DNA of 64,000 bases, taken from the IMG/VR virus record IMGVR_UViG_2909435987_000002; one strand, 5' to 3'. Shown here in pieces: positions 25,189 to 62,220 of the stretch. Below the pieces are notes generated by a model. The model was not told the origin of the DNA, ran no database searches, and saw only the letters and a list, made by a program, of their open reading frames with translations. The stretch comes from a virus. The translations under genes were made by a program, and so were the position numbers. Numbering within the stretch: the stretch's first letter is position 1; every line of letters starts with the position of its first letter.

Positions 25189-28100
25189 CTAATAAACAGT
25201 ATATATACTATTTAATTCATCTTCTACTAACTTTACTTCAGGAATAGTTAATTGATTATATATCCCTAAGAAAGCTATATCTGCATTAATGGCGTTACTA
25301 GTAGAAGGAGTAGCTTCTAATGGGGCACCAATTCTACAATTAAATATCGCATTCTCTGGATTAAAAGCAGCAGTAGCAGTTGTTAAAGTAGATCCATTAT
25401 TCCTAAATACTAGAGTATTATCTGATCTGTAATAAGTTAAAGAAATAAGACTCCAAGTATTATTAGTTAAGAAAGCTGAACTACTTCTTATCTGAGGACT
25501 AAACCATGTATAGTTATATCCTCTCAAATATAAACTTAATTGATTACTAGAATTCTGCTCTAGGTATAATCCAGTATTATATCTTTCACTATTTCCAGTA
25601 TCATTAATCTTGGGATTAAATAGATTGAGGATACATGCATTTATTCCTACACTGTTAGGTTTATATATAAGGAATATAGTAAAGCCTTTATCAAAATTAA
25701 AGAGTCCATTACTAGCAGTAGCTAAGTCTAAATACTCTACATTGGCTCTAGTGAATCTCATTACATCAATAGAACCTTTAACAGTCATACTAGGTCTATT
25801 AGATGAATTAGTTTGCTGGAATAATCTATTGTATCCAGAAGAAGTATCTAACCATTCAGATACTTTACTACTTACTAAAGTAACTCCTAATTCTCCTCTT
25901 AATATTAAAGTAGGACTATTAATTTTATTTAGTGGATTAGGTAGAGTATTAGTTGGTATTGCTCTAGAAGTATCACCTTTAACTATTAAATAACTACCTG
26001 TTACAGTCTTACCAGCATCTCCTGAGTTAAAGATTAAAGTACCTGTTACTGGATTAATAAGAACTTCATTTAACCCTAATACATCAGTAGGATTAGTTCT
26101 AATAATAGCAGGATTACTATAACCAGATATAGAAAAAGACATTTTAGTAGTATCTACATGTTCCATAGCAGTAAATGTAGATATGGGACTTGTACCCCCA
26201 TAAGGAGATTCAGGTATAAGTAAACTATAAGGGGCGCTATTAGGAATACTAGTAGAACTTAAATTAATAGTTTCTGTAGGGGCACCATACCAAGTAGAAG
26301 AGAAAGATAAGTTATTAGTCATATCCTTAATCTCTCCTTCACATACTACTTGAGTATAATATTCATTAATAACTCCCCCTGAACTACCTAACTCTTCCCA
26401 AGCTAAGGTTAATCCATCATCTATACCTATTAGATTATCTACAGTAGTATGGGTAGGTTTAGCAGCAGTAGAGGGTACTACCCAATTAGTTCCATTCCAT
26501 GTAGGTGTATCTAATACCCAAGTAGAATTAATATTATCCCAAGAATAATAATCCCACGCTAATGGATTAGGTATTGCACCTACTGTATTAGCTGCTGTAG
26601 TTACACCTGCTGTAGTAATAAATGAGGGTAATGGAGTAAATACTGTATTAGGGGAATAGAACACACCCTTTTCTAATTCAATAGAACCTCCATATAAAGT
26701 ATTATCTGTATTAATACTTCCTAATAAAAAGCTATCTTGAGTAGAACTATTAACTGTTACATCAGTAGAGTCCATTAAATAATTTTTAGCTACTACATAC
26801 TTCCCGTTTATAAGACGAGGAAATATATGACCGTCATAAGTAGTATTACCTGTATTAGCTATACCTCCGCTTATATAGTTAGTAAGAGCTGTAGTACTAG
26901 CAAAATTAAAAGAATAGAGATATACATATGTTCCAGAAAAAGGATAGAGTACTCTTACAGAAATATACCATCTACTATCTACAGAACATACCAGTATATT
27001 AGGATTACTAAACTGAAAAGCTAAAGCGTTATAAGTATTAGTTGTCCATATAGAGTTAGCAGCTATACCCCCATAAAAATCTATCCAATTATTATTTACT
27101 GGCCCCGCACTAACTGTTGAACTATCAGAAGCCCACCACCATATAGCTAACTCTCCAGCAGATCTAACTCCACATAATGCTAATCTATCCAATCCACCAG
27201 AAGGAGAAGGATTAGGATCTGCTTTGATAAAGAATACTGAGTCATAAGTAGAGCTATATAGATTACTAGCAGCAAAGGTGAATGCTAAAGAAGTATTCCA
27301 ATTATCAGAGTTATATAACTCTGCACTTCCTGAGTTATTAAAAAGAGCATAAACTTTAGTTCCATAATCTACACCATGACAGGGTAGATTCTTAATCTGA
27401 GTAACTGTATCATTATCAGGATCTACACTCCATAATCCAGTAGAAGCGCAAGCTATATAAACAATACCTGTAGTTGTATCTACAGTACATTGCCTAATAT
27501 CTATTGCATCTAAATCAAAGTTATTAGTGTCGTAGGATTTATACTCTCCATTTAGAACTTGGAATAAAGTAATACCATTCTTATCCCAACAAAGAATCTT
27601 CCTCTCTGAATATTTAACAAATCTACATTTACCATTAGGTTCTAAATGAAAATTATTGTGAGGTAAATAAATAGAGTTATCTGCTTGAACAGGCATACTT
27701 CCTAAATAAGAAGCTACTTGATTATAAACATTACCATTAAACCCTGTAGTCTTTCTTTTATATATCTTATAAGTAGAAGTTCCTATTACCCCTCCAGTAA
27801 TTAACTTAAACATATAAAGTTCAGGAAAAGAATTACCATTTAATCCTGACCAAGTACCGTCTAAATTAGGCTTAATAGAACCAGTAGCTAAATTATTAGC
27901 ATCCTGAAAAGGTAGAGTAGCGTTAGCTGAGTGAGAAAAAAGGGATTTAAATACAGAATTAAATGTAATGTTTCTGGCAGAATAACTATTTGAATACTGA
28001 CCCGTATAAATACTTCTAACTATTCTCCCTAAAAAGCTTGTATTAGTACTTAATAATGTACTAGTAAAAGTAACTTTTCTAAGTAATTTATCTATAGTAC

Positions 28101-28923
28101 TGGATGAGGAACTAGCACTAGCTTGGAAATGTGTCCCACGATTATAAAAAGTAGGTCTAGTGTAATTACTACTAGGAATATTAGATAGACTAGGCATATG
28201 AGTACCTACATATAATCTTCCATTAGGAGATCTATTAGTAGGAGTACTACCTCCAGTGTTATGGTTAGTAAAAGGAGTATTACTAGTTATAGTATCTCCT
28301 ACATCTTTAGCATAATCTAGAAATACAGAATCAAAAGGCACTCTTAATCTATATACAAAATCTATTATTTCTGTAGCATTCTGTGTACATGGAGTATCTA
28401 GTACTACATAAGCCATAGCTTGAGTAGATAAAGAGTTAGCAGGATAGTTAGCTTGACTACCACAATGGTCTATAGAAGAAGATAGTTTAGTTAAAGCTAT
28501 AGTTTTAAATGTTCTAGAGTAACCATTACCTACCCCATATAAAGATTCAGTAGAACCTAATCTCTGTCTTATTTCAATAATGTAATCTGTATTAGCAGTA
28601 GATGGGATAATAGATATATAAGGGCCAGCATTAGCGACATTAGTTATTGCAGTAGCAATGAATCCATCTAAGAATAATATTGATCTACCATAATCAATAG
28701 TATTAGTAGAAATAGAAATATTACTAAGAAATATACTGCCTCTCTCTTCTATAAGAGTAGGGAAGGAAATACTATCTGAATAGTTAACTATTCTATTAAT
28801 AAAACTATTAGTAATATTATTCTTATATCTCTTATTAAATCTTTCTACTAAAGTGTTCTCATCTTTAATAGATATTTCAAATTCACCTTGTAAAAGATTA
28901 TCCAATCTGATATCCTCCAGCAT
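25189..28923 (-). CDS. Large fibre/whisker-like virion protein (1244 aa), possibly with a C-terminal lectin-like domain
   Basis: N/S/T/G-rich beta composition with a LamG/ConA-like C-terminal segment. This is inference only. Confidence 0.45.
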   Translation of the reverse strand: MLEDIRLDNLLQGEFEISIKDENTLVERFNKRYKNNITNSFINRIVNYSDSISFPTLIEERGSIFLSNISISTNTIDYGRSILFLDGFIATAITNVANAGPYISIIPSTANTDYIIEIRQRLGSTESLYGVGNGYSRTFKTIALTKLSSSIDHCGSQANYPANSLSTQAMAYVVLDTPCTQNATEIIDFVYRLRVPFDSVFLDYAKDVGDTITSNTPFTNHNTGGSTPTNRSPNGRLYVGTHMPSLSNIPSSNYTRPTFYNRGTHFQASASSSSSTIDKLLRKVTFTSTLLSTNTSFLGRIVRSIYTGQYSNSYSARNITFNSVFKSLFSHSANATLPFQDANNLATGSIKPNLDGTWSGLNGNSFPELYMFKLITGGVIGTSTYKIYKRKTTGFNGNVYNQVASYLGSMPVQADNSIYLPHNNFHLEPNGKCRFVKYSERKILCWDKNGITLFQVLNGEYKSYDTNNFDLDAIDIRQCTVDTTTGIVYIACASTGLWSVDPDNDTVTQIKNLPCHGVDYGTKVYALFNNSGSAELYNSDNWNTSLAFTFAASNLYSSTYDSVFFIKADPNPSPSGGLDRLALCGVRSAGELAIWWWASDSSTVSAGPVNNNWIDFYGGIAANSIWTTNTYNALAFQFSNPNILVCSVDSRWYISVRVLYPFSGTYVYLYSFNFASTTALTNYISGGIANTGNTTYDGHIFPRLINGKYVVAKNYLMDSTDVTVNSSTQDSFLLGSINTDNTLYGGSIELEKGVFYSPNTVFTPLPSFITTAGVTTAANTVGAIPNPLAWDYYSWDNINSTWVLDTPTWNGTNWVVPSTAAKPTHTTVDNLIGIDDGLTLAWEELGSSGGVINEYYTQVVCEGEIKDMTNNLSFSSTWYGAPTETINLSSTSIPNSAPYSLLIPESPYGGTSPISTFTAMEHVDTTKMSFSISGYSNPAIIRTNPTDVLGLNEVLINPVTGTLIFNSGDAGKTVTGSYLIVKGDTSRAIPTNTLPNPLNKINSPTLILRGELGVTLVSSKVSEWLDTSSGYNRLFQQTNSSNRPSMTVKGSIDVMRFTRANVEYLDLATASNGLFNFDKGFTIFLIYKPNSVGINACILNLFNPKINDTGNSERYNTGLYLEQNSSNQLSLYLRGYNYTWFSPQIRSSSAFLTNNTWSLISLTYYRSDNTLVFRNNGSTLTTATAAFNPENAIFNCRIGAPLEATPSTSNAINADIAFLGIYNQLTIPEVKLVEDELNSIYTVY

Positions 28924-29872
28924 TAAATTGATATGGCTGATTAGTTATAGTGTTTGTAGAACCATAACTAGTATTAGTTAATAAATAGCTAGTTCCTTCT
29001 TGATAAATTAAAGGAGCATTAAAAGAGTATGAAACATTATTTATACTATTTGATGAGCCATAACTAAAATGATTAACTAAGTAACTAGTTACTTGTTGAT
29101 TAATAATTGGTGAGTTAAAAGAATAAGAAATATTGCTTTTAGTATTACTAGAACCATAAGAAATACTATTAGATATAAACTCTTCTACAACACCAAAGTT
29201 AGAATTAGATTTAAAGTAAAAGGGTTTAGTTCTCTTTACTTCTACATTACCTAACTCATCTTTATAATAAATAGCTAATAAATGATTATACCCCTGAATA
29301 GTAGATATAGCTGATGTTTCACTAGCTAATACCTGATCAACAAGAGTATAGTTACCAGTAGTATTTATATATAGTTCAGCTTTATATACCTTACTAATAT
29401 TAAAACTAGAATAATCCCAACTTAGTATTGCTTCAGGAGTTAGATTACTTAAATAGTAACTATTCTCTATTCCTAAAGGCCCTAATACACCTGCTTTAAT
29501 ATCAAGGGGTAATAAATCATCAGCTACATAGTTCTCAGATACCCTACTAATAGAAAGAGGTAAGGTTGAGAACAAAGAGGTATTAAGAGTTAAGTCTTTA
29601 AACTTAGAGCTATCAAAGCTAGAAGTTATTCTTAGTACTATTGGTTGATTACCAGCTACAAAGTTATTAGGAAATACTATTGTAGGAGTAATAGAATTTG
29701 GGTTCTCTATAGTTATAGAGGGGCCGCTAACTTGAGTCCATTCAAATCCTATAGAAGAAGAAGAAGTAGCTACAGTTATAAGTAAAGGCTGATTAAAACA
29801 AACATAATATATCTGCTCAGGTATTACATTAAACTCTAAAGGAGGAGCTGGAAAGAATAGAAACCTTTTCAT
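28898..29872 (-). CDS. Hypothetical virion protein (324 aa)
   Basis: ORF in the structural operon. Confidence 0.45.
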   Translation of the reverse strand: MKRFLFFPAPPLEFNVIPEQIYYVCFNQPLLITVATSSSSIGFEWTQVSGPSITIENPNSITPTIVFPNNFVAGNQPIVLRITSSFDSSKFKDLTLNTSLFSTLPLSISRVSENYVADDLLPLDIKAGVLGPLGIENSYYLSNLTPEAILSWDYSSFNISKVYKAELYINTTGNYTLVDQVLASETSAISTIQGYNHLLAIYYKDELGNVEVKRTKPFYFKSNSNFGVVEEFISNSISYGSSNTKSNISYSFNSPIINQQVTSYLVNHFSYGSSNSINNVSYSFNAPLIYQEGTSYLLTNTSYGSTNTITNQPYQFNAGGYQIG

Positions 29873-33361: not shown

Positions 33362-34453
33362 TTATTTAGCAAACATTTCAACTACTGATTCTACAGCTAA
33401 ACTAGCCCCTAATGTCAACTTTACTAAAGGTTCTGGATCACCATAACGTGTTAGTTTACTAACAGGTAATTGATTACCAAATCTTAAAGTAAAAGGAGCA
33501 GGACTCATATATATAGGATCAATACGACCTAAAGAAGCTGCATCTTTCTTAGTAAGATATCTAGTAACACCATAGTTCTTTACTACTTGACCAATAGGCA
33601 TATTAGAAGCATATTCATACTCAAATACAGCTACATGAGTTTTACCTGAAGCAGTAAACGTACTAGCAGTTGTTAAATCAACAACTGTACCATTAATATC
33701 TGCAATAGCATCTGATTGGCTAGCATAATTCTTAGCAGATTTTAATAGATACTTTCTGCTAGGCATAAAAGCTGTGTTAGCCGCAGCTATAGCATATACT
33801 CTTCTCTGTGCTGGAATTAGACCAACTTTAGACTTGAAATCTAAAAACTGATCTCTAGACATTACTGAGAGAGCATTTCTCTTAGGAGAGTTATCTACTG
33901 TAGCTACTTCTGCTAGAACTAGATCAAATCCAATAGGTGCAAAAGGTTGTAGTTGATATAATGGATCCCACTGTCTACGTTCTGCTTCATAATAAGCATT
34001 GAAGATTGTGATTTCATCAGTAGTAGCAGTGCCGTTATAAACTTTTTTAGATAAAGCTTGTAAGCCACCTTTAGCTAATACACCTTGTTCTACATCACTA
34101 GGAAAGAAAGTATGAGCAATAGCTTCAGCAGTTTGTGGATCAGCAGCTACATAATAAGAATTACCCGCAGCTTCAGCAGCAGAACGACTAGAAGGTTCTA
34201 GATATTTAGGTACTGCACCAATAATAAAAGATTGACCTTGAGCAACTAAAGAAGATAAAGTACTAAAGTCAATTGATTTACCTGTGAAACTATAATCAGT
34301 ACCTTCTACTTCAAGCAAACCCCCATCAAATTCAATAAGATCATCAGTAATAGTATATGTTGGAGATTTCTTTAGGTAGCATTGAGCGTAAGTTTTATCT
34401 CCACCTTGAGTTCTAGCTCCGGGAAATATTTGGTTTAAGAAAAGTAAACCCAT
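33362..34453 (-). CDS. Abundant virion protein (auxiliary/decoration capsid or major tail protein candidate)
   Basis: Directly downstream of the MCP gene and shares its GC-richer codon usage. Confidence 0.45.
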   Translation of the reverse strand: MGLLFLNQIFPGARTQGGDKTYAQCYLKKSPTYTITDDLIEFDGGLLEVEGTDYSFTGKSIDFSTLSSLVAQGQSFIIGAVPKYLEPSSRSAAEAAGNSYYVAADPQTAEAIAHTFFPSDVEQGVLAKGGLQALSKKVYNGTATTDEITIFNAYYEAERRQWDPLYQLQPFAPIGFDLVLAEVATVDNSPKRNALSVMSRDQFLDFKSKVGLIPAQRRVYAIAAANTAFMPSRKYLLKSAKNYASQSDAIADINGTVVDLTTASTFTASGKTHVAVFEYEYASNMPIGQVVKNYGVTRYLTKKDAASLGRIDPIYMSPAPFTLRFGNQLPVSKLTRYGDPEPLVKLTLGASLAVESVVEMFAK

Positions 34454-39410: not shown

Positions 39411-39444
39411 AATAGGCGGCTAGATTAGCCGCCTATTTTATTTA
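39410..39444. terminator. Bidirectional terminator between the convergent SWIM and portal genes
   Basis: AGGCGGC-tagatta-GCCGCCT flanked by A/T runs. Confidence 0.65.
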
Positions 39445-42023: not shown

Positions 42024-45000
42024 TTGAGTAAATATAATTATCGTTCTCTTTTCAGAAGAAGAAGAAGTAGAAGCTATAAATCCAATCCTCTACTTAATAC
42101 AGCTAGATTTAATCTATTGTTTAGAAGTAGTACTCCCTATGAGTATCAATCTCAAGAAGATTTATATAGGGGATTTCTTAATAATGAATATATGGAGATG
42201 GCTGAAAGAAGAGCCGAAGAATCTAATGCTGAAGCTGAATTAGCTGTTAAAAGAGCAGTATTAGATAGAGCAATAGATATATTTGATGCTTCTTTAGAAG
42301 AAGATGGATTAGATTCTAATGCTGTATATAAAAGATTATTTGGAGCTTTTGAGACTAGAAATCTATTTGATGATAATGACTTAGATAGAGAATTCTCTAG
42401 AGATTTACTTCATGACTTAAGTAAGTTTATGAGAGGAGAAGAAGTAGATAATAAAGAACTTATTCCTCAATATAACTATATAAGAGAAAGAGAAAGGGAA
42501 TTATTAGATAGAGAATTATTGGCGGCTCCTAATGCTAGTAAAGCCATCAATGATGATATAGAAAGATTTAAAGAAAGGGCTCATGGTACTAGTTCTAGTA
42601 TTAATACTATTACTGGAGGAGGATTAAATAGAAGTAAAAGTTTACTAGAAGATATTAACTTTGTTAATAGACCAGGTATCTTACCAGCAGTAGCTATGTT
42701 AGCTGAAGCTAATAAAGAATTCTTTATAGATATCTTCCAACTACAGAATAGAACAATACAAGACTACTACATAACTAATATTATCAATAGAGCTACTGCT
42801 TATAGAGAATCAATAGCTAGAGGAGAAAACCCAGATAAGTTTAGTTTTAATATAAGGATGGCATTCAATTTAGAAGCGCCTCATGATGTTGGTTCTATGG
42901 CAGGCATTCTAGGATCTAACTTGGGCTTCTATAACAAACTAATGAGATTAAAAGATTTATATAAAGATGATATAGATATTAATGTTCTATTCGCTGATAA
43001 GAAAAGCCACCCTAAATTTATAGTAACTGATAATTACGCCATATTAGGATCTCAAAACCTTACTGCTCCTGTTGGTAAATCTGTTTATCAAGCAGGATCT
43101 AACTATGAAATTATTAAAGTTCTTCATTATAAACAAGAAGGATATACCCCAGATGAATTAATAGAAGAGATTAGAGCTGGTAGAAAGAGTGCTAAAGATA
43201 TAGATGCTCAATCTCTTTTATATCTGCAAGCTAGACAAGTAATGAAAAGAACGTTTAATAAACCCAATGAAAAGAATCTTTCTAGTGAAGTGAGTAATAT
43301 AGGGGGCCCTGTAGAAAACTTTAATTTTCTTAAAGGAACTCTTGAGTATATAGATGGGGCTGGTAGAAGAAATGATGCCCGTATGTCTATGATTCTAAAC
43401 CAAGTATTCTTACTTCAATATGAAAAAGATTTAATGTTTGGTAATAAAGGTCTTATTAAAGGTGAAATGGGGCCTCATTCTCAACAATTATTTGATAGTA
43501 GAAATCAATATATTAATCAGAAAGCTCAAGTCTTTCAGAAGATGCAGAGACAATTCTTAGAGATGGTTATTGAAGGAAGAGGAGTAGCCTATGTAGATAT
43601 CAGAACTTATAGAGATAAAGTTCAAGATCCAGTAATGGATAAGTTAAGTGAAGTTGGATTATTAAAAAACTATAATTATGATCTAACAAAGTTAGTAGGT
43701 GACTTAGCAGTAGGTAATACTACTAAAGAAAGAATTAACTCTTTAACGGCTGAACTAAAGAAGTATAGCTATAAAGGACAGGCATTAGATGAATCTATGG
43801 CTGTTCAAATTATGGCTATGGCTAGTGGAAATATACAGTCTGTTAATGTAGCAATGCAGCATGGTAAAGAGTGGTTAGCAGAAGAAAGAGATAAGAGTGG
43901 TAAATGGGTTCCTATTGCTGCTAAGAGTGGATCATCTAACCCTAATATGTACTCTGGAGCTTTAGCAAATAATGAGTTTGAAAAAGATTTAACTAACTGG
44001 GAAATAGATTTTATTACTGCTAACGATAAGGTTAGAAAGCTGGCTAATGTACAGAGAGATAGAGGTACTTTTGGATTTGGTTTAAGTAGAAACCAAGAAG
44101 AAGAAATGATGAGAGATCAGGCTAATGCTTTTCATGAGAAGGTCAATGATATAAGAGTTAGAAGAATAGGTCAGATTGAATATAGTGATGTTTATCAAGG
44201 GGGAGAATGGGAAAAGCAAGTAGATAGAAGTAGATTGATGGAGCTACATGATAGGTTAAAGAATCTAACTAGTGATCTAGGTGTAGATAATATTATGTCT
44301 GTTGGAATTAATAGAGATAATCATAGTAGAGCTATATCTTTATCTGTTAGGTTAGATCCCTCTAGATTAGGAGTTAGTGGATTAGGGCCTATTAGTTATA
44401 AATTCACTACGTTATTAAATGGAGCAGGTAGAGATGAAGGTTATGTAATGGAACTTAATAAATCTAAGATGATTGGTAGAACAGAAGTAGTTAATACATC
44501 AGGAGTCAATCTAGTTACTGGATTTGAAAGGGATGGTAAACAATTAATAGTTCAACATGGACAAAGAGTAGGATTATCTCCTATAGAAAGTACTATTGCA
44601 TTACTTAGTTCAGTAGCGATAGAGGTAGGTAATCAAGCACTTATTAATAAACCTAGAGAAGAGTTTGATAAATATAGAGGTAATTATGATGCTATAGGAA
44701 GTATGGTAGTTAATTACCTATTAAAGATGAGTGGGGTTAATAGAAAAGATATATCTTCTCTATTAGATATGGATGGAGGAGATTTGTTATATGGGATTAT
44801 TACTAAGTTTGAGAATAGATTTACGGGTAGAGATGGCGGCGTATTAGATAAGGTTAGGAGTTTAAGTAATATTTCTTTAAACGATAGTAATAGAAATGTT
44901 CAGATAAGAAATCTAATTAATACGATGAAGTTAATGGCTCTTAATAGTGGTACTAGCAGAGCTGGAGTTCTAGTAGGAGGAAGTAATTTTGATAGCAGTA

Positions 45001-48000
45001 ATTCTATTATTAGTCAATTCATAGCTCTTATGGGTATGGATGAGTTTGCTGATTTAAGATATGACGTTATTAACGCTAACTCTAATAGCTTTTATAGAAA
45101 AGGAATTGAGCAGGGTATAAAAGAAGTTAGTAATAGTAAGTTTGAGGATAGATATTTATATGGACAAATAAATACTTATAGTGGATCTCAAGGAAGTAGA
45201 AAAGTTCCTATATATGGTTTTGATAGAGGAAGAGAAAGAGATGTTCGTATTATTAATAGTCAAGGAGGGCTAGCTAGTTTAGCTTTACTTAATTCTCCAT
45301 ATGCTTTTGGGCCTTCTAGTGATTTAGGTAGAGGAGACTTAGCTTTCTTCTCTGTAGCTGAAGGAGGTGGATCTAGAGAAATAGGTAATATTGGAGATGA
45401 TCTAACTAATGAAGCTTTACTTCCTTTCCATAGACATGCTGGTGTGGGTCATTTAACTCTTATGGATACTATAGAAGATAGTGGAGTTGGTGCCATATTG
45501 AAAGTTAGTGAAGCGGCTGATTATGCTAAAACTATTCAACATTTAGGTGGTGGTTTTGCTAGTAAGACTGGAGAGGATTATGTTGAAAGATTGAGAGAGA
45601 TGAGTGGAGAGGATGATACTTTCCTTATGTTTTACTTTGACAGAATTGGTAAGGCTTCTCAAATTAACCAAAGATTAAAGAATGTTGGTGGTACTAGACC
45701 TCTTATGGATCTAACTATGGAATACCAACAGCTTATAGATACTATGAAGGCTGTTAAGTATAAGAATAAATTTAGTAAGGGTTCAGTTAATGTGGCTACC
45801 AGTGATCAATTAAGAGCAGCTTATCTAGATGATCTAAGAACAGGATTAAAAAGTATTGGTAAGAGTAGTGATTTAATAACTAGCGATTATGCAATAGGAG
45901 CAGAGATAGGACAACAGTTAGCTCCAGTATTAAGCGCTCAATTAAGTAAGGTAGTAGAAGATATTAGATCACAAGTAATGAGTGAATTTAATTTCTCTAA
46001 AGAAGAAACTTATGGTGGTATAGGTGCAGAAATATTTAGGGCTAAGTTATTAAATGTTAATACCCATGCTTCTATGGATAGAGGAATGATGGCTTCTTCT
46101 AGAAGACATGGTTCTCCTATTATGCTTATGCAATTAAGCGGTGCTTATTCAGATTGGTATTATGCTAATCCAGAATATGGTGGTGAAGATGGCATGAGAC
46201 AGACTTTTATAGATAGAAGTGTTAAGACTGTTCAAGGAAGTAAGTTAAGAGCAACTATTTCTTCTAGTGATCTTATAGATGCATTAGGTATAGATAGCTG
46301 GAATATAATGAATAATGTAATGAGAGAAAGTGGTGAAATTATAGCTTTTGATAATGAGGATAGAAAAACTTGGGTATATAGATATGATGAGAGTAAGAAA
46401 GAATACATAAAAAAGAATGTAGTTGATAGTAGGAAACAGTTTCCCCTTATCAAAGATACTATTGAGAAAGTAGTAGAGAAACCCAGCTTTAGTTATGTTA
46501 GTGCTACTAGTAGTACTGCTTCTTTCTTCGAGGAGAATGCTAGAGAGGTATTAAAAGATATTAGGATATTAAGTGCCAACTTAGATAGTAATGAGATTCT
46601 AGTAGAAGTTAATTATATGAGAACTCTAGTACAAGGAGGAGGTAGAAGAACTGAATCTAGTGCTGGTGGTTTATTTAAAGGTGTTCCAATATTCACTAAT
46701 ATGAATGGAGTATTAGATGAATGGATAGGACAAAGGGGTGGCTCGTTAACTGGAGCTAATATAAGAAGGGAACAGATACAAGGTATAGCTAACCCTAAGA
46801 ACTTTAAGAGTTATTTCTTCTCTCATGGTGCAGAGATATTAACACAAGAAAGAGATAGTAAAGGTAATAGTAAATATTTAAAAGCATTACTTAATACAGA
46901 TACTAGAGTATTAGCCGCCTCATTATTGATGAGTATGGGTAATAGATTTGGTGGTGGAGGTAGTGATGAGGCTATGGTTGCATTAGCTGAATCTGCTAGA
47001 AGAGGAGATTTAGGAGAGTACTTTAAAAATAGATATCAATATATAGCACTTAATTCTGGTAGTACTAATGCCTTAGATATAGCTAAGGCGTTTCTTAAGG
47101 GTATTAATGCAGATCCTACTGGTGAGTCACTAAAAGTATTAAGTGGTAAAGATTCATTAACTGGTGACTTAGGTGATCTAAACGTTAAGTCTATTGGGTT
47201 TATTGAATATGATGATATAGCTAGATCTCTTAAAGGAGAAAGAGGGGCGGCTAATAATCTTAGAGATAAGTTGAAGTTATTATTATCAGATCCTACTAAA
47301 GGAATTATTAACCAAGAATATCTAGCAATGGATAAGAGTGGTAGAGGTAGAGAGTTGAGTATTATAGCTGGGGGAATAGATTTAATGGCGCAGCTTATTA
47401 CTTCTAAGGCTATTACTATTCCTGTAGCAGATGTATTAGGAGATGAGAATACTTTTAGAGAACTAGCTGCTATTGATGGTCAAGCTTATAGAAAGATTAT
47501 CGAGTCTGATAGGAAAGATGAATATGCTCAACTATTAAATTACTTAGCTAATACAAGTCATATAGTAGGTCTATTAGCTCCTACTGCTGCTTCTCAATTG
47601 AAAGTACCTGTTAGTAGTAAAAGTAAAGCCTATTTAGAAGCTCAATATCTAGTACCAGAGGCTTTCAGCGCTCAAGCTAATGTATTTAAGGATAGTGGTA
47701 ATGTAGCTAAGTTAAGAGATCTAGTATCTACCCTATTAGGTGCAATGATGGGCGGCACTGGAGATGAGTTTGTAGGGGCTACTAATAAGCTACAAGTATT
47801 TGATTTAATGGATGTCTATTCTAGAAGTCCATTATTCAAGAGTAAGATGCTAGGTTTCTATCATAGTGCGATAGGTAGTACAGGTCAGTTTGATTCTTTA
47901 AGAAGAAGATATGAACTATTTGGTACTATTCAAGTGATGATGGGATCTACTAGTTTTAATTACACAGAACAAGATAAACAAATGATTGCAAATCTTATTA

Positions 48001-51000
48001 AGAGTAGTAAGGTTGGCAGTATGGAAGATGTTAAAGGATTGTTAGGAGTTCTAGAAAAGAATCAATCAAGAGGTCAGTTTGAAACTACTCTTAGTTTAGG
48101 TATAGAAGGAGTAATGAAAGAGTTTGAAGCTGTATCTACTGAATATAAATTACTTAGTGATAAAGCAGAAGGTATTAGTCACGCTTATTCAGTGATAGAA
48201 GGGATGAGTAAGAGTGGAATGCAGAGAATGGGGTTCTCTTTCCCTCTACTAGAAATAGAAGGAGGTAAGGTCAGATTTAATAAAGCTGTTAAAGTATATA
48301 GTTTTGCCCCTTCTGCTGAAGATACTCGTATTGTAGGAGAACAATATGGGGATCAGATGAGTGAAGAAATAAAAATAATTATGGATGTTTGGGAAGGTTT
48401 AGCAGTAGGGACTCATGTTAATAAATTACTAGACAAGATAGCTGTCATGGGAGATGAGGGAGAAGTAGAAGTGGGATTGGAAGCAGCTAGAGATATTATT
48501 AGGTGGCAAGATAGCGCTATGAATATATTTCCTCTATTACATGGAGGAATAGCTGGTACTAGATTGCAACAGGTAATGGGTAATAAGACTCCTATGGAGG
48601 GAGCTAACTTTACTGCTGCTGGTTCTCTATTAGTTCCTAATGGAGTGTTGGTAGGAATGGATGCTATTCAGAATAAGTTTGGTGGTAAAGCAGCAGAAGA
48701 TAGAAAGAAAGCTTTAGTTATTCTAGAAGATAGAATAGGTAAGAATACTAATAGAATAATTAAAACTAAAAGACAGTTAGCTGAGTTAGAGGCGGCTAAT
48801 CCTTCTATTCCTTGGAAAGGTAAAGACTTTAGGGAGTATATGAAGAATGCTACTAAAGGTGAATTAGAAGCTGCTAGTAGAAGAAATGATTTACTTAAAG
48901 ATTTAGGTTATTATAACGACCATAGAAGATTACTTAGCGCTCAACATGTAATGTTGCATGATGGATTAGGGCCTAAAGGAACAAAACAAATAACAAGATT
49001 AATAGAAGAGTCTACTAAGATTAGAGAAGCTCTTAGTGCAGCTACTAATAATGATGATAAGGAAAGGATACTACTTCATATAGAAGATAGATTAGGTCAC
49101 TATCAAGATTTGAAAGTGGAGAGTTCTATTAGAGAAGGAGATTACTTTGCTAGATTAGCTGCTATTGCAGAGATGCAGATTCTTCAAGTGGAAGCTTTAG
49201 GTAGATTAGGTAGGAATAGTGGTAAGTACGGTGATACTACTATTGAAAAGATGAAAGCTAATACATTGGGTTTAATTAATGCTCCTTCAGTAATAGAAGG
49301 TCTTAGGTTAGGTAGTGGTAGAAAAGGTATGTACATGCCTAAGATGAGAGCTGAATCTCTAGCAGGTGAGATTAGAAAGGGGACTATGAATGTAATAGAT
49401 AGATTTAATGATGATAAGAGAAGTTTGAATGCTCAAGTTATACAAGAGAATATAGATATTGTTAGAGAACAGATTAAGCAGTACCAAACAGATTTAGAAA
49501 CTAAACATGGAGAGTTCTTCTTAAAGAGTCAGCTTAATCAAAAGATACAAGATATGTATTCTAGATTAGATGGATTCCAATCTAGATTAAGCAAGAGTAG
49601 TAGTCCAGAAGAGTTAGCAGATATTAAACATTTATTAAATAGTGATTTATCTAGAAACTTTGTAGAGCTAGATCTAGTTAGGATGAATTCATTTAGAGCT
49701 TCACCTATAGGTAATGAATTTATTACTTATAGTAAATATGATGTATTCTCACTTGAAGATTTAAATAATAGACTTCAAGAGAAAGGTTTTACTATGAGTT
49801 TTAATATAGATAGAAATAAGACTTTAGGTTTATTTCATCCTATAGGATTCTATACTAGTCAAGGCGGTGACTTTGATGGAGATAGTGCGGCGGCTATATT
49901 TGAACATAGTAGAAGATTAGATCTACAAAGAGAACATAACTCTGTAATTATTAGAAATATAGAAGAAAGTATTATTGATGTAACAAATAAGATTAGTAAC
50001 GAAACTGATCCTACTAAATTAGCAGATTTAAATAAAGCTTTAGATAAGTTAGAAAGTAGAAAAAATAAATATATTAATGAGAATAGAGACTTAAGTGTTA
50101 CTCTTCAACAGGTAGAGAAGACTAATAGTATTACTGAATTTAAAGATAAAGCTGCTAGTTGGGTAAGTAATTATCTAAAGATAGATAAGGCTTTTCTAGA
50201 AGGAAAAGATACTAATGTAATATTTAGCTTCTTAGAACATGCCAGAGATTTATTTGATGGTATGAAGAATATAGTTAATAAGCCTATGTTAGAAGGTCTT
50301 ATGGCTATAGGAAGAGATGAGAAAGTAGTTCAAGATAAAGGTGCATTTGAAAGATTAATTATAAGTCATAGTACAGGTAGTGATAATAATTTATATGAAC
50401 TATTAAAAACTGATAATGGATTAAGAGAAGATATTAGACAGAATTTAGTAAAAGCACATCAGAATAAAGATGGGTTTGATAAAGGTTTAACAGAGTATTT
50501 AGGTTCGTTGACTCAAGCTCAAGTAGGCAGTGATGCAATTCAAAAGTATCAGTCTAGAGGGTTAATGGGTGCGGGCATGAATACAGAGAATATGGAGATG
50601 ATGAATAAAGCATTAGCTCAAGCAGGTAGTGTGATATTAGGTAAGACTTATAACACTATGGCTGGGTTATTATATGCTGAATCTCCTATGTTAGCTATGG
50701 CTCATGCATTAGAGAATGATGATCCTGAAGGTACTCTAGGTAATCTAGTAAAGAGAAATATAGGAGATCAGGGATATCAGGATTTAATGCAGAGTGCTAA
50801 ATATGCTAGAGGATACTCCCAAGAAATGGGGGGATTTCTACAAACTGTTAATCAGATTATGAGAGATTCTATTAAACCTAAAGATGCTGCTGGATTCTTC
50901 AGAGAATTAAATGATAAGTTAGATGCCTATAGAAAAGCTAATGAGAAGGATAAAGATAGAATTATACAAGAGTTAGTAGAAGACTTCGGGCCTGGATCTG

Positions 51001-53135
51001 GATTAAAGGCTTTAGTTCAATTAGATAATTTAGTAAGACATATAGAAGGACTAAGAAGAGAAGAGAATGATACTAATGAGAAATTAGCTAATCAAGAGTT
51101 ATTAAGAAAGTTTGGTATTAATGAAGAAAGTCCAGAGTATAAAGAATACTTAAGAAGATTGGGGTATGTAAATCCTAATGGAACAATAAATGCCAGTAGT
51201 TCAGAGGGATTAGAAAAACATGGTAATAAGAATGTAGTACTAGCAGCTTACAAAACTAAGATGGATTTAGTAAGTGTAACTAGTGCATATGCTTTTGAGA
51301 AAGGAAGAGGAAAAGAATTATTATATAAGGGCGGTAGATGGAACAGTCCAGATAGTACTGGTAATACTTTATATAGTATCTTTAAGGAAGATTTAGAATC
51401 AGGATTACCTCAATTTAAAGCAATAGATGAAGCCATTACACCATTAATAGATATAGCTGGTAGACATCTAGCTAACCCTAGTCTAATACCTATTAATACT
51501 CTTAATAGAGACGAAGCTGAATATGTTGATTATATTAAGTCTATGATTCCTGCTCAACATGTTAGTAAGTATGAAGAGATGGATGAGATAGATAAGAAAT
51601 ATCATGCTCATGTTTTCTTAAAGACTAAAGGACAAACAAGCCACTTTGCTGGAGACTTTGGAGAAAAGCTAATTAGCTTTGCTAAGTTCAATGCTAATAG
51701 AGCTGAAGCTTATGGTGGTAACTTTATGGCAGGCGGTAAGAATTTATTATTAAGTAAAGATAGTAGTTTCTTTAATCATCTAATGGCAGCAACTTCAGGG
51801 AAAATAGATAATGAGACTCTAGCATTCTTTATGAATGCTAACGTAGCTACTTTTAGAAGACATACTGGTAAGAGTAATGCTTCAATAGAAGATGTTCTTA
51901 GTGCAATGAATAGTATGGGTAATCTTAATACTAGTGAAGAGAGTGCTAGGATGGCTGAGTTATTAGCCCCAGCATTAAAAGATAAAGAAGTAGCTGAGTT
52001 AATGATGGCTAGAGTTAGACAAACTCAATATGGAATGATGTCTCAAACTGTATTAGAAATGCAAAGAGGCGCAAGTACTGATAATTTATCTGAGATTAAT
52101 GAAGATGATTTAGTTAAACATGTACAGAAATTAGGCGCTAGTAAAGAAACAGCTAGAGAATTTGTACAAAGACATTTAAGTTATTTATTAACTAAGTCTA
52201 TAGCTAATCCAGATAGTAATGGCAGTGAACTAAGTCAAGCAGAAGCAGATTTAAGACAGAAGATGGGGAGAGGATATATAGCACCTAATGTAAGAAATCA
52301 AGGTAGTAATATAAACTTAGGTCAGCATTTAAAACAGACTACTTCAGGTCTAATTAATAAGAATTCTGATATAGGTTTAGAAATATTTGCTTTACCTTTA
52401 TTAGCAATAGCAGGTCAAGCTATTGCCAGTGGGGAAGTTAATCCAGAAATATTCCAACAAGCAATAGGAAATAGTATTACAGCTCTTGCCTATACAAGAC
52501 CTTATCAATTCTCAGGGAAGACTGATTTAGGAAAAGGTATTACTGCTGCTTCTAGTATTGCTGCTGGTACGGCATTTAAAGCTAGGATGGCTATTCAGAA
52601 TCAGGAAGATGGAGATATTGGTAAAGCTCTTACAGGTTTGGCAGTTAGAGAAATAGCTATGAATGCGACTATAGGACTCGTATCAGAAAAGTTTACTAAT
52701 GTGGCTGCTAGAGCATTAGGAAGAGAGAAACATACATTAGATATCAACACATATGAAGGGATAAGGGGTGTGGCTGCTACTGCTTTAGGCGGTATAGCTA
52801 GTGCTGTATTAGGTATGTTAGTAGGTGAAGGGGCTAAACAAATAGTTAATCCTAGTAATCCTAGTGTATTAGAACAGACTCTAAAAAGTGCAAAAGAATA
52901 TCTAAATAGAGTAAAACAAGTATCTAATGAAGAATTACTAGACGATAACTCTAATTTAGAAAGTAGTAATGGAATAGTAGAATATATAACTTATAGAAGT
53001 TATAGTGGTGATCCTGAGATTAATACTGCTACCCAACAAGGTCTATATGCAGAAGATTTAGATAACGAAGGGGTTAGTGAAACATTTCAAACTGATAATA
53101 CCTATGATGGATATCAAACTGAATTAAGTCCTTAA
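42024..53135 (+). CDS. Giant single-polypeptide RNA polymerase-like protein (3703 aa) with a beta-prime-type DPBB aspartate triad
   Basis: Uninterrupted 11.1-kb ORF with a TTG start and an Arg-rich N-terminus (RSLFRRRRSRSYKS). The motif FYTSQGGDFDGDSAAAIFEH (DNA 49869-49883) resembles the universal NADFDGD metal-binding motif. No T7-like HDS motif is present. Confidence 0.55.
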   Translation: MSKYNYRSLFRRRRSRSYKSNPLLNTARFNLLFRSSTPYEYQSQEDLYRGFLNNEYMEMAERRAEESNAEAELAVKRAVLDRAIDIFDASLEEDGLDSNAVYKRLFGAFETRNLFDDNDLDREFSRDLLHDLSKFMRGEEVDNKELIPQYNYIRERERELLDRELLAAPNASKAINDDIERFKERAHGTSSSINTITGGGLNRSKSLLEDINFVNRPGILPAVAMLAEANKEFFIDIFQLQNRTIQDYYITNIINRATAYRESIARGENPDKFSFNIRMAFNLEAPHDVGSMAGILGSNLGFYNKLMRLKDLYKDDIDINVLFADKKSHPKFIVTDNYAILGSQNLTAPVGKSVYQAGSNYEIIKVLHYKQEGYTPDELIEEIRAGRKSAKDIDAQSLLYLQARQVMKRTFNKPNEKNLSSEVSNIGGPVENFNFLKGTLEYIDGAGRRNDARMSMILNQVFLLQYEKDLMFGNKGLIKGEMGPHSQQLFDSRNQYINQKAQVFQKMQRQFLEMVIEGRGVAYVDIRTYRDKVQDPVMDKLSEVGLLKNYNYDLTKLVGDLAVGNTTKERINSLTAELKKYSYKGQALDESMAVQIMAMASGNIQSVNVAMQHGKEWLAEERDKSGKWVPIAAKSGSSNPNMYSGALANNEFEKDLTNWEIDFITANDKVRKLANVQRDRGTFGFGLSRNQEEEMMRDQANAFHEKVNDIRVRRIGQIEYSDVYQGGEWEKQVDRSRLMELHDRLKNLTSDLGVDNIMSVGINRDNHSRAISLSVRLDPSRLGVSGLGPISYKFTTLLNGAGRDEGYVMELNKSKMIGRTEVVNTSGVNLVTGFERDGKQLIVQHGQRVGLSPIESTIALLSSVAIEVGNQALINKPREEFDKYRGNYDAIGSMVVNYLLKMSGVNRKDISSLLDMDGGDLLYGIITKFENRFTGRDGGVLDKVRSLSNISLNDSNRNVQIRNLINTMKLMALNSGTSRAGVLVGGSNFDSSNSIISQFIALMGMDEFADLRYDVINANSNSFYRKGIEQGIKEVSNSKFEDRYLYGQINTYSGSQGSRKVPIYGFDRGRERDVRIINSQGGLASLALLNSPYAFGPSSDLGRGDLAFFSVAEGGGSREIGNIGDDLTNEALLPFHRHAGVGHLTLMDTIEDSGVGAILKVSEAADYAKTIQHLGGGFASKTGEDYVERLREMSGEDDTFLMFYFDRIGKASQINQRLKNVGGTRPLMDLTMEYQQLIDTMKAVKYKNKFSKGSVNVATSDQLRAAYLDDLRTGLKSIGKSSDLITSDYAIGAEIGQQLAPVLSAQLSKVVEDIRSQVMSEFNFSKEETYGGIGAEIFRAKLLNVNTHASMDRGMMASSRRHGSPIMLMQLSGAYSDWYYANPEYGGEDGMRQTFIDRSVKTVQGSKLRATISSSDLIDALGIDSWNIMNNVMRESGEIIAFDNEDRKTWVYRYDESKKEYIKKNVVDSRKQFPLIKDTIEKVVEKPSFSYVSATSSTASFFEENAREVLKDIRILSANLDSNEILVEVNYMRTLVQGGGRRTESSAGGLFKGVPIFTNMNGVLDEWIGQRGGSLTGANIRREQIQGIANPKNFKSYFFSHGAEILTQERDSKGNSKYLKALLNTDTRVLAASLLMSMGNRFGGGGSDEAMVALAESARRGDLGEYFKNRYQYIALNSGSTNALDIAKAFLKGINADPTGESLKVLSGKDSLTGDLGDLNVKSIGFIEYDDIARSLKGERGAANNLRDKLKLLLSDPTKGIINQEYLAMDKSGRGRELSIIAGGIDLMAQLITSKAITIPVADVLGDENTFRELAAIDGQAYRKIIESDRKDEYAQLLNYLANTSHIVGLLAPTAASQLKVPVSSKSKAYLEAQYLVPEAFSAQANVFKDSGNVAKLRDLVSTLLGAMMGGTGDEFVGATNKLQVFDLMDVYSRSPLFKSKMLGFYHSAIGSTGQFDSLRRRYELFGTIQVMMGSTSFNYTEQDKQMIANLIKSSKVGSMEDVKGLLGVLEKNQSRGQFETTLSLGIEGVMKEFEAVSTEYKLLSDKAEGISHAYSVIEGMSKSGMQRMGFSFPLLEIEGGKVRFNKAVKVYSFAPSAEDTRIVGEQYGDQMSEEIKIIMDVWEGLAVGTHVNKLLDKIAVMGDEGEVEVGLEAARDIIRWQDSAMNIFPLLHGGIAGTRLQQVMGNKTPMEGANFTAAGSLLVPNGVLVGMDAIQNKFGGKAAEDRKKALVILEDRIGKNTNRIIKTKRQLAELEAANPSIPWKGKDFREYMKNATKGELEAASRRNDLLKDLGYYNDHRRLLSAQHVMLHDGLGPKGTKQITRLIEESTKIREALSAATNNDDKERILLHIEDRLGHYQDLKVESSIREGDYFARLAAIAEMQILQVEALGRLGRNSGKYGDTTIEKMKANTLGLINAPSVIEGLRLGSGRKGMYMPKMRAESLAGEIRKGTMNVIDRFNDDKRSLNAQVIQENIDIVREQIKQYQTDLETKHGEFFLKSQLNQKIQDMYSRLDGFQSRLSKSSSPEELADIKHLLNSDLSRNFVELDLVRMNSFRASPIGNEFITYSKYDVFSLEDLNNRLQEKGFTMSFNIDRNKTLGLFHPIGFYTSQGGDFDGDSAAAIFEHSRRLDLQREHNSVIIRNIEESIIDVTNKISNETDPTKLADLNKALDKLESRKNKYINENRDLSVTLQQVEKTNSITEFKDKAASWVSNYLKIDKAFLEGKDTNVIFSFLEHARDLFDGMKNIVNKPMLEGLMAIGRDEKVVQDKGAFERLIISHSTGSDNNLYELLKTDNGLREDIRQNLVKAHQNKDGFDKGLTEYLGSLTQAQVGSDAIQKYQSRGLMGAGMNTENMEMMNKALAQAGSVILGKTYNTMAGLLYAESPMLAMAHALENDDPEGTLGNLVKRNIGDQGYQDLMQSAKYARGYSQEMGGFLQTVNQIMRDSIKPKDAAGFFRELNDKLDAYRKANEKDKDRIIQELVEDFGPGSGLKALVQLDNLVRHIEGLRREENDTNEKLANQELLRKFGINEESPEYKEYLRRLGYVNPNGTINASSSEGLEKHGNKNVVLAAYKTKMDLVSVTSAYAFEKGRGKELLYKGGRWNSPDSTGNTLYSIFKEDLESGLPQFKAIDEAITPLIDIAGRHLANPSLIPINTLNRDEAEYVDYIKSMIPAQHVSKYEEMDEIDKKYHAHVFLKTKGQTSHFAGDFGEKLISFAKFNANRAEAYGGNFMAGGKNLLLSKDSSFFNHLMAATSGKIDNETLAFFMNANVATFRRHTGKSNASIEDVLSAMNSMGNLNTSEESARMAELLAPALKDKEVAELMMARVRQTQYGMMSQTVLEMQRGASTDNLSEINEDDLVKHVQKLGASKETAREFVQRHLSYLLTKSIANPDSNGSELSQAEADLRQKMGRGYIAPNVRNQGSNINLGQHLKQTTSGLINKNSDIGLEIFALPLLAIAGQAIASGEVNPEIFQQAIGNSITALAYTRPYQFSGKTDLGKGITAASSIAAGTAFKARMAIQNQEDGDIGKALTGLAVREIAMNATIGLVSEKFTNVAARALGREKHTLDINTYEGIRGVAATALGGIASAVLGMLVGEGAKQIVNPSNPSVLEQTLKSAKEYLNRVKQVSNEELLDDNSNLESSNGIVEYITYRSYSGDPEINTATQQGLYAEDLDNEGVSETFQTDNTYDGYQTELSP

Positions 53136-56519: not shown

Positions 56520-57317
56520 GTGATTAAAAGAGTTATGTTCCGTTTAAGTAAAGTGAATTTGTTTGGTTTAGATATCTATGCTGGTAATAAGGACGATTTA
56601 TTAATTCAAATAGAAGAATGGATTAATAATAATAATCGATATACAAATATCTTTACACCCAATGTAGATCATATCTGCAAACTAGAAGATGAATCTTTAG
56701 AGTCTTTTAATAGATTACCTTTGAAATGGACTTATAGAGAAGCTTTCCTTATTCCAGATGGTATGCCTTTAGTATGGGCTAGTAGATTATTAGGTACTCC
56801 TCTTAAAGAAAGAATACCAGGAAGTGACTTGCTTTCTGACTTGCTTTGGTTAGCTAATAGTAATCAATGGAGTATGGTATTTGTCCTTCCAAATAAAGAA
56901 GTAAAGGTAAAGCTAAAAGAATACATAACAGATTACTACCCTAATATCAATCTGTATGATAGTTCTATAGCTTCTTTCCCATTCGAGGGTAGAGGAAATA
57001 ATAGAGAGCAGATAGCTAATGATATCTGGGAACTAGAAGTAGATATAGTACTAGTCTGTTTAGGATTCCCTAGACAAGAAAGATGGTTAATAGAATATGG
57101 TCATGGTCTTAGAGCTAAGTTGGGTATTGGTTTAGGTGCTTCTCCTGAATTCTTAGTAGGTATGAAAAAGAGGGCTCCTAAATGGATAGGTAGAATTGGT
57201 ATGGAGTGGCTACATCGGGCTCTTACTGATAGAAGATTAATACCTAGATATCTAAGCAATGTCTACTTTCTATGGTTAGTGATGAGAGAATTGTTAAATA
57301 AGTGGCGGGGTAAATAA
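56520..57317 (+). CDS. WecG/TagA-family (WecB/TagA/CpsF) glycosyltransferase
   Basis: DGMPLVWASRLLG...VCLGFPRQERWLIEYG...GIGLGASPEFLVGMKKRAPKWIGRIGMEWLHRALTDRRLIPRY matches the Glyco_tran_WecB core. The start codon is uncertain (GTG at 56520 or ATG at 56535). Confidence 0.75.
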   Translation: MIKRVMFRLSKVNLFGLDIYAGNKDDLLIQIEEWINNNNRYTNIFTPNVDHICKLEDESLESFNRLPLKWTYREAFLIPDGMPLVWASRLLGTPLKERIPGSDLLSDLLWLANSNQWSMVFVLPNKEVKVKLKEYITDYYPNINLYDSSIASFPFEGRGNNREQIANDIWELEVDIVLVCLGFPRQERWLIEYGHGLRAKLGIGLGASPEFLVGMKKRAPKWIGRIGMEWLHRALTDRRLIPRYLSNVYFLWLVMRELLNKWRGK

Positions 57318-57600
57318 ATGTTTAGGTGGCTGGCTAGATTATTAAAGTTAGATACTTTTACTGAAAGAACAAAAGTATCTACTGATAGAATGGGTGACTT
57401 GATAGATTACTATAGGGAAGATAATGATAACTATAGATATAAGTCTTATCTATAGGGAAGATAATGATAACTATAGATATAAGTCTTATCTATATGAAGA
57501 TGTAAATAATGAAGGCGGGCACATTAGACTTACTATAGTAGAGACTATAGATGATGATGGAGAAATTGTTGATAGAGAAAGTACTTTAACTGAAGAATAA
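57318..57600 (+). pseudogene. Small acidic paralog-family member disrupted by a 40-bp tandem duplication (premature TAG at 57453-57455)
   Basis: Removing one 40-bp copy restores an 81-codon ORF (MFRWLARLL...YLYEDVNNEGGHIRLTIVETIDDDGEIVDRESTLTEE) that ends at the TAA at 57598-57600. Confidence 0.55.
57411..57490 (+). repeat. Perfect 2 x 40-bp direct tandem repeat (tatagggaagataatgataactatagatataagtcttatc)
   Basis: Copy 1 is 57411-57450 and copy 2 is 57451-57490, identical by eye. Confidence 0.85.
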
Positions 57601-57607
57601 ATAGAGT

Positions 57608-57637
57608 GGGCGGCTAGTTATGCCGCCTGTTTTATTA
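57608..57637 (+). terminator. GC-hairpin terminator (GGGCGGC-tagttat-GCCGCC + TGTTTTATT)
   Basis: Perfect 6-7 bp GC stem followed by a T-tract. Confidence 0.65.
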
Positions 57638-58769: not shown

Positions 58770-58797
58770 GGGCGGCATAACTAGCCGCCTATTTTAG
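58770..58797 (+). terminator. GC-hairpin terminator (GGGCGGC-ataacta-GCCGCC + TATTTTAG)
   Basis: Same stem as the 57608 terminator. Its loop is the exact reverse complement of that one. Confidence 0.65.
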
Positions 58798-60978: not shown

Positions 60979-61176
60979 ATGAATAAGTGGTTTAGGATTT
61001 TATTTATCAATAGAAAGAATAGAAATCTAGATTGCTATAGTGGATTATATAGTGAGCCTAGTGATGCTCTTATTGATGCCGCCCTCTATAGAGAGAATCT
61101 AGAGGGTGAAGTAGATTGTTATTTAGTAGAAGAAGATCTAGAAATAGAAGGAGAAATTAATGTCTATCAAAATTAG
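60979..61176 (+). CDS. Small acidic protein, paralog family (65 aa)
   Basis: YSEPSDALIDAALYRENLEGEVDCYLVEEDLEIEGE. Confidence 0.5.
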   Translation: MNKWFRILFINRKNRNLDCYSGLYSEPSDALIDAALYRENLEGEVDCYLVEEDLEIEGEINVYQN

Positions 61177-61494
61177 AAAGTCTGTATTTGAAACTAATTC
61201 CTTAATATTGGGGCGTTAACTTAGTGATAAGTTAAATGAATTGGATAAATTGCTGGAAGGCCTTCATATATGTACGGTTAATCAGCAGCCAAGATAGTCT
61301 TAGGTTAAAAGAGACTATAGGGTTCAGAGCATAGAGGTTGAGCCTAACAATAATACCTCCACGAACATCCAACATCTTTATAAGATGATGATATATGCCG
61401 AACTTACAAGATGATAAATTGTAAGAAGTAAAGATAAAAAGCTTTACGATAACAGAACGCAAGTAGCCATAGTCTAGCTATTAATACTACAGAC

Positions 61495-62220
61495 ATGTTA
61501 CTAGATACTATTATTCCAGATAAGAATGGAAGAGTAATTATTAATAGCGGCAAGTTTGGTTGGGAATGGAATAAGTTTAATGATGCATATACTAAAGCTA
61601 GTTATGCTCTTACTGCTCTTTTATATGTTGATTTACCTCTTATAGAAGAAGCTACTCAGAATCTACATGACGTTATTAAAGAGCAGACTCTAAGTGAAGA
61701 AGTAGTACTTAATCTACCTAGTGAAGATTGGGATAGTCGTAACTATGGTTATATAGATCATCAATCAGTAGAGAGGGGTCAGATGAATGCAGTTCTATTA
61801 GATAAGAGTAAACTGCATAACTTTATCTTCAATAAGAAGAGTTGGTTATTTCTAGGTAATGATAATGAAGAGGCCCCCAATAAATTCTATGATACTGAGG
61901 ATAAAGTATATAATTGGAAATTAGTCTTTACTAATTATCCTAGTATTACTCAATGGGAGTTTGAAGAATTTCCTGATAGAGATAAACTAATAGAAGCTAT
62001 TGAGGGATTATGTTTAAGGTTTACTAGAAAGGGCAATCAATATATTCCTGAAGAAAGACCTTATTACTATAGTAGCGATGAAGAGTATTATGAGTTTCCT
62101 TATAACGAAGATAAAAGGAAGGTAACTGATACTACTATTGAGTTTGTAGAAGATATTTGGAGTAGGGATATAGAACCTAGAAAGTTAGTTGTTAACTATA
62201 CCATAGAAAAGATTAAATAG
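61495..62220 (+). CDS. Hypothetical acidic protein (241 aa)
   Basis: ORF. Confidence 0.45.
   Translation: MLLDTIIPDKNGRVIINSGKFGWEWNKFNDAYTKASYALTALLYVDLPLIEEATQNLHDVIKEQTLSEEVVLNLPSEDWDSRNYGYIDHQSVERGQMNAVLLDKSKLHNFIFNKKSWLFLGNDNEEAPNKFYDTEDKVYNWKLVFTNYPSITQWEFEEFPDRDKLIEAIEGLCLRFTRKGNQYIPEERPYYYSSDEEYYEFPYNEDKRKVTDTTIEFVEDIWSRDIEPRKLVVNYTIEKIK

Follow-up and report, generated by a model that had tools for sequence, protein, structure and literature searches.

Slipped-strand mispairing between short direct repeats is an established mechanism by which DNA segments are duplicated. The frameshifts that result from such misalignments, known as Streisinger-type mutations, have their classical examples in the rII and lysozyme mutants of phage T4 and in lacI of E. 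coli. Perfect tandem copies, once formed, can expand or contract via slippage or recombination. Known contingency loci consist of many copies of units of 1–9 nt.

Two translational systems also invite comparison with a gene interrupted by a short, non-triplet block. In T4 gene 60, the ribosome takes off at codon 46, a UAG codon comes next, the take-off and landing codons are matched, and a hairpin is present at the take-off site (PMC5462505). That hairpin is compact, with C-G pairs and a UUCG loop (PMC5462505). The second system comprises the “Byp” insertions in the mitochondrial genes of Magnusiomyces capitatus, which are accommodated by translational jumping (PMC5009743, PMC5462505).

Here, we describe a perfect 40-nt tandem duplication in a small ORF of a cyanobacterial phage-like region. 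The closest match is to the Streisinger-type duplications: the locus shares with them exact head-to-tail copies, a short parental direct repeat, a length not divisible by 3, and the possibility of precise reversion. Nothing essential differs, save that the parental single-copy allele is a reconstruction in our case. The kind of mutation is well known: it is an ordinary, recent frameshift.

Source and phage setting of the sequence

The stretch of DNA that was analyzed (64 kb; hereafter, “the window”) derives from a cyanobacterial assembly. Both fragments of the interrupted ORF match proteins of Calothrix sp. FACHB-1219 exactly (GCA_014696495.1, contig JACJQF010000002.1; 359,493 bp). The window is identical to this contig over the overlap that was checked, with the position in the record equal to the window position plus 11318. 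The G+C content is about 31% throughout. A myovirus structural module is present (major head protein, portal, tail sheath, and baseplate), and a single 3703-aa ORF occupies 42024–53135 on the + strand; residues 202–966 of its product are ~28% identical to a hypothetical protein of the Microcystis phage Ma-LMM01 and its relatives. The window belongs to a myovirus region in Calothrix sp. FACHB-1219 that is distantly similar to Ma-LMM01. The presence of such a module in a Calothrix contig could reflect a prophage, a co-cultured phage, or a very large phage. No nucleotide-level match was present in 50,697 phage records, and a literature search under the strain name found no papers.

Several other features of the region were recorded. 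The 3703-aa ORF has a strongly positive GC skew (0.33–0.42) and no Pfam domain on record. Many of the genes near the duplication are orphans; the neighbors also include genes for WecG, SPFH/Band 7, PAAR, cellulase, Wzy_C-like, and WDGH-domain proteins. Near the start of the contig, the G+C content rises to 0.47 (positions 20001–20582 of the additional segment L002; ~3385–3966 of the record) vs. 0.27–0.34 elsewhere, and this jump may mark a boundary of the phage-like region. A look-up of JACJQF010000002.1 returned “8 samples with this contig”, a count whose meaning is ambiguous.

Downstream of the duplication, the Rfam model for group I catalytic introns (RF00028) is matched along its full length at 61193–61425 (+; 61.8 bits vs. 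a gathering score of 50, E = 2.9e-13). This match sits between a 65-aa ORF (60979–61176) and a 241-aa ORF (61495–62220), the frame of which is closed by stops just upstream. At 33798–33892 (+), ARAGORN called a 95-nt tRNA-Ser(tga) within an ORF of 363 aa that is encoded on the other strand (33362–34453); the locus falls below the gathering score of the Rfam tRNA model, and the call is probably a false positive. Finally, a tandem repeat with a 96-nt period (2.3 copies, 72% matches, TRF score 214) is found at 28940–29159, at the junction of two long ORFs on the - strand (25189–28923 and 28898–29872).

A perfect 40-nt tandem duplication

Two 40-nt units (CTATAGGGAAGATAATGATAACTATAGATATAAGTCTTAT) lie head to tail at 57410–57449 and 57450–57489 on the + strand. 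They are identical at all 40 positions, a result obtained by direct read-out, TRF (score 170), a repeat finder, and string comparison. The initial annotation had reported a perfect 40-bp duplication at 57411–57490; the duplication is confirmed, and that placement is a one-base rotation of ours and equally valid. The period-40 identity continues for five bases past copy 2, to 57494, and the whole structure covers 85 nt (57410–57494). An exact period-40 run of 45 bases rules out a chance origin. The five additional bases, CTATA (57490–57494, +), repeat the first 5 nt of the unit; together with 57410–57414, they constitute a 5-nt direct repeat that bounds the single-copy unit.

We scanned for perfect tandem duplications with periods of 12–200 nt in the window and in 11.5 kb more of the same contig (~75 kb in all). 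The duplication at 57410–57489 was the only one in the 64-kb window, and none was detected in the additional 11.5 kb (segments L001 and L002).

Effect on the reading frame

The ORF that begins at ATG 57318 (57318–57455, +) comprises 45 sense codons and ends at a TAG (57453–57455; codon 46), three bases into copy 2. Copy 1 encodes (Y)YREDNDNYRYKSY in the frame of the gene. Because 40 is 39 + 1, a ribosome initiating at ATG 57318 is shifted by one base when it reaches copy 2 and meets the TAG at once. The frame that it enters there contains 21 stops per 80 codons of the restored gene. The frameshift proposed in the initial annotation is thus correct, as is the prediction that deletion of one copy would yield an 81-codon frame. 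With one 40-nt copy removed, the single-copy (restored) product, MFRWLARLLKLDTFTERTKVSTDRMGDLIDYYREDNDNYRYKSYLYEDVNNEGGHIRLTIVETIDDDGEIVDRESTLTEE, corresponds to 243 nt (80 aa plus the stop, TAA 57598–57600), and it has the codon statistics of a real gene.

The C-terminal remainder of the original gene occupies 57490–57600 (+; 36 codons plus the TAA). A junction-spanning ORF of 58 aa (57424–57600, +), listed in GenBank as the hypothetical protein H6G33_09470, starts inside copy 1 in another frame. Residues 10–58 of this ORF are residues 32–80 of the restored protein, and its first nine residues derive from copy 1 read out of frame.

Evidence that the restored frame was a gene

The coding potential of the two halves was assessed using codon-position frequencies learned from 24 long ORFs in the window. 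The N-terminal part (57318–57449) favors its own frame by +14.9 log units, and the C-terminal part (57490–57597) does so by +18.7. For calibration, true in-frame pieces of 36 codons score 19.4 on average (sd 6.4), and off-frame pieces average -29. Both halves therefore score as in-frame sequence, which indicates that both are coding, in frames that are joined only after 40 nt are removed. It is from the reading frames and these codon statistics alone that we infer the ancestral single-copy state.

The surroundings of the restored ORF are also instructive: it occupies the gap between an upstream stop (TAAATG) and a terminator hairpin. The upstream gene (56520–57317, +) encodes a glycosyltransferase of the WecG/TagA/CpsF family (PF03808, E = 2.9e-41), and its TAA abuts ATG 57318. 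On the other side, 8 nt past the restored stop, lies a GC-rich hairpin with a T-run (GGCGGC-TAGTTAT-GCCGCC; 57609–57636, +). The hairpin has a folding energy of -7.8 kcal/mol (z = -3.7), and none of 200 shuffled sequences was as stable. It is likely an intrinsic terminator that closes the transcription unit.

This GC-rich hairpin recurs in the window. In the orientation GGCGGC-ATAACTA-GCCGCC, it is found at 57609–57627 (-), 58771–58789 (+), and 39415–39433 (-, three mismatches). These intergenic sites, which represent both orientations, compare with zero expected by chance. The hairpins probably act as terminators, or else they belong to a small intergenic element that is repeated in the phage.

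A single-sequence AF2 model of the restored protein had a modest overall pLDDT of 63.5. The model features a three-stranded C-terminal sheet (pLDDT 74–82), and the break introduced by the duplication falls inside the first β-strand (residues 39–48). As modeled, then, the 45-aa stub would be deprived of the β-sheet half of the protein, which is the better-predicted one. A Foldseek comparison of the model to viral structures, conducted in search of a function by fold, returned nothing below E = 0.07.

Homologues, paralogues, and single-copy alleles

Searches of large collections with the restored 80-aa protein found essentially itself. Among 5.8 billion clustered proteins, the only matches were the two fragments from its own contig. 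HMMER searches of 1.84 billion representatives returned the same self fragments and three spurious matches: two to tandem-repeat proteins and one to a short motif in a multi-repeat protein of 1338 aa. Neither a homologue nor a single-copy allele was detected in IMG/VR, the GTDB representative genomes, JGI metagenomes, or (by tblastn) INPHARED, and a megablast search with the 2-kb region had no match in phages.

Flanking genes were also used as anchors for synteny. The downstream ORF of 194 aa had no matches and is equally an orphan. The WecG gene had no close relative in genome contigs; its only matches in the phage collection were to distant homologues from phages (26–35% identity), located in unannotated records.

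The initial annotation had also described the interrupted ORF as a paralog and the restored one as a family member. This description found no support. In a tblastn search of the window, the best match other than the gene itself had an E value of 0.28. The adjacent 68-aa ORF aligned to the restored protein with a pairwise E value of 0.067. Local-alignment z scores vs. shuffled sequences were ≤ 1.5. As far as sequence comparison can discern, the broken gene is an orphan, with no homologue or paralogue in any collection searched.

Origin of the duplication

From these data, we conclude that a recent, spontaneous tandem duplication probably inactivated a small phage orphan gene. Three origins had been offered in the initial annotation, namely replication slippage, an assembly artefact, or a switchable gene, and slippage fits best: a 5-nt direct repeat delimits the unit. 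In the reconstructed single-copy sequence, CTATA opens the unit and recurs immediately past its end. Such flank identity, of at least 5 nt, occurs in only 0.77% of arbitrary 40-nt units of the window. That there are zero differences between the copies implies that the event is young.

The sequence of events may be envisioned as follows. The ancestral gene would have run from ATG 57318 to the TAA, with 80 codons and with CTATA present twice, 40 nt apart. It would have been the last gene of a + strand operon, located after the WecG-type glycosyltransferase gene and before the terminator hairpin. Most likely, the nascent strand slipped from the second CTATA back onto the first, and the 40 nt were recopied. 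The remaining products would be the 45-aa N-terminal stub and a C-terminal part that is presumably untranslated or, at best, re-initiated. As for any perfect tandem duplication, precise reversion by a reverse slip or by recombination should be possible; it would not be programmed. A variant of this scheme, in which a hairpin assists the slippage, was rejected: the hairpin of the ancestral DNA is no more stable than those of shuffled sequences (z = 0.2).

Real duplication or assembly artefact

Could the second copy be a product of the assembly? According to this explanation, there is one true copy, and the other stems from an untrimmed 40-base overlap at a join made by an assembler or gap closer (e.g. 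k-1, where k = 41). A length of 40 nt is k-1 for a k-mer size that is commonly used in de Bruijn assemblers. The identity of the copies is perfect, the source is a short-read draft assembly, and the collections that we searched hold no independent sequence of a relative, all of which are compatible with an artefact.

Four observations, all of them indirect, weigh on the other side. First, the 58-aa junction-spanning ORF is present under two GenBank accessions (MBD2201575.1 and MBD2217261.1), from two Calothrix assemblies, as well as in a MULTISPECIES WP_ RefSeq record for unclassified Calothrix. Because this ORF requires the junction, the second deposited assembly must also be in the two-copy state. 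Second, an untrimmed overlap would land anywhere, and the 5-nt microhomology at the endpoints is to be expected in only 0.77% of arbitrary placements. Third, there is no second such duplication in ~75 kb of the contig, which argues against a systematic joining error. Fourth, the 85-nt structure should be shorter than the usual Illumina read. The two assemblies are not fully independent: they probably share a project and pipeline, and they may represent the same or sister strains. Owing to this probable common provenance, we still allow the artefact a small chance. The initial annotation was right to name it as a candidate origin, but the two accessions and the microhomology make it less likely than was supposed there; we regard it as improbable.

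Phase variation

Were the gene switchable, as the initial annotation also suggested, the copy number would alternate between one and two often enough to be useful, such that genomes with the gene ON would coexist with genomes in which it is OFF. The locus has some of the attributes of a simple-sequence contingency locus: the repeat lies within an ORF, the unit is not a multiple of 3 in length, and gain or loss of a copy would switch the frame. Also, the gene is situated among accessory genes and adjoins a glycosyltransferase gene of the surface-polysaccharide type. However, contingency loci feature long tracts of 1–9-nt units, whereas the present unit is long (40 nt) and occurs just twice. No other such locus exists in the window, and both deposited assemblies are in the same two-copy state. 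Any newly formed duplication is reversible, and this property does not speak for design. We found no support for the suggestion of a switchable gene, and we consider it very unlikely.

Translational rescue

Another explanation leaves the duplication in place and supposes that the ribosome circumvents it. Two routes can be conceived. In the first, which resembles that of gene 60, the ribosome would take off at CUA 57450–57452 beside the UAG, slide 40 nt, and land at CUA 57490–57492, making exactly the 80-aa protein. In the second, a +1 shift at CUA-UAG-G would give rise to a 93-aa protein with a 13-aa repeat.

The layout has a superficial likeness to that of T4 gene 60. The take-off and landing codons are matched (CUA, 40 nt apart), UAG 57453–57455 is directly 3' of the first, and take-off would occur after ~45 codons, an echo of gene 60 (PMC5462505). 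In addition, a 9-bp hairpin (57447–57455 paired with 57471–57479; -8.4 kcal/mol) encloses both the take-off codon and the stop, and an alternative 5' hairpin has a score of -9.5. But matched codons arise automatically from any out-of-frame tandem duplication, and an early stop is expected, given the density of stops in the +1 frame (21 in 80 codons). Because the duplicated sequence contains a quasi-palindrome (CTATAGATA/TATCTATAG), all of the gene 60-like features come about automatically.

There are differences from gene 60 as well. The gap here, 37/40 nt, exactly replicates the coding sequence before it and is not a distinct inserted element. The hairpin appears weak, is AU-rich, and has a loop of 15 nt; it is no better than shuffled sequences in its 49-nt context (z = -0.64), and its 31-nt core has a z score of -3.0. 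By eye, there is no SD-like element before the landing codon to aid landing, and residues 1–45 bear no recognizable resemblance to the nascent-peptide signal of gene 60. As for the +1 route, a shift from CUA to UAU would not appear to be a slippery one.

The Byps provide a second comparison. Like them, the present block is short (Byps are 27–55 nt), is not a multiple of 3, interrupts a coding sequence in an AT-rich genome, and would have to be skipped for the protein to be made. Byps, in contrast, are foreign, mobile, present in many copies, and unlike the coding sequence that surrounds them, while the duplication is a single exact copy of neighboring codons. We accord rescue of either type very little credence, and it is correspondingly doubtful that the two-copy allele still yields the full-length protein by a CUA-to-CUA hop, i.e. 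that it is a newly born, natural bypass of the gene 60 kind.

Gene fission and other readings

A further alternative, which we view as just as improbable as rescue, holds that the duplication split one gene into two: the 45-aa and 58-aa ORFs would now each encode a small protein with its own function, and translation of the 58-aa one would begin at ATG 57424. The two reading frames are open, and their overlap is compatible with re-initiation; moreover, a weak purine-rich stretch (AGGGAAG) lies ahead of ATG 57424, and NCBI annotates the 58-aa ORF. Yet the first nine codons of that ORF are nothing other than out-of-frame copy 1, the break would fall within a β-strand in the predicted structure, and the copies are undiverged, leaving no time for selection to have acted on the new arrangement.

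The remaining candidates can be dismissed briefly: a T7-like promoter reading of CTATAGGGAAGA was rejected, as the motif is confined to the two copies and found nowhere else in the window, and the presence of just two copies, adjacent and identical, disposes of readings as a diversity-generating retroelement (DGR), CRISPR, att site, or target-site duplication. A search of Rfam for a known RNA family at the duplication site yielded nothing near significance.

Implications

The duplication carries a caution for annotation: GenBank lists the 58-aa fragment as a gene. Two of the alternatives, if true, would have further consequences. A population in which one- and two-copy alleles are mixed would mean that the gene has a reversible on/off state. 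Likewise, production of the full-length protein from the two-copy allele would constitute natural, newly arisen bypassing, a phenomenon otherwise known from very few systems. On the reading that we favor, that of a recent slipped-strand duplication, the significance is small: the event would mark one orphan gene of a Ma-LMM01-like Calothrix phage region as recently inactivated, and it matters little beyond that.
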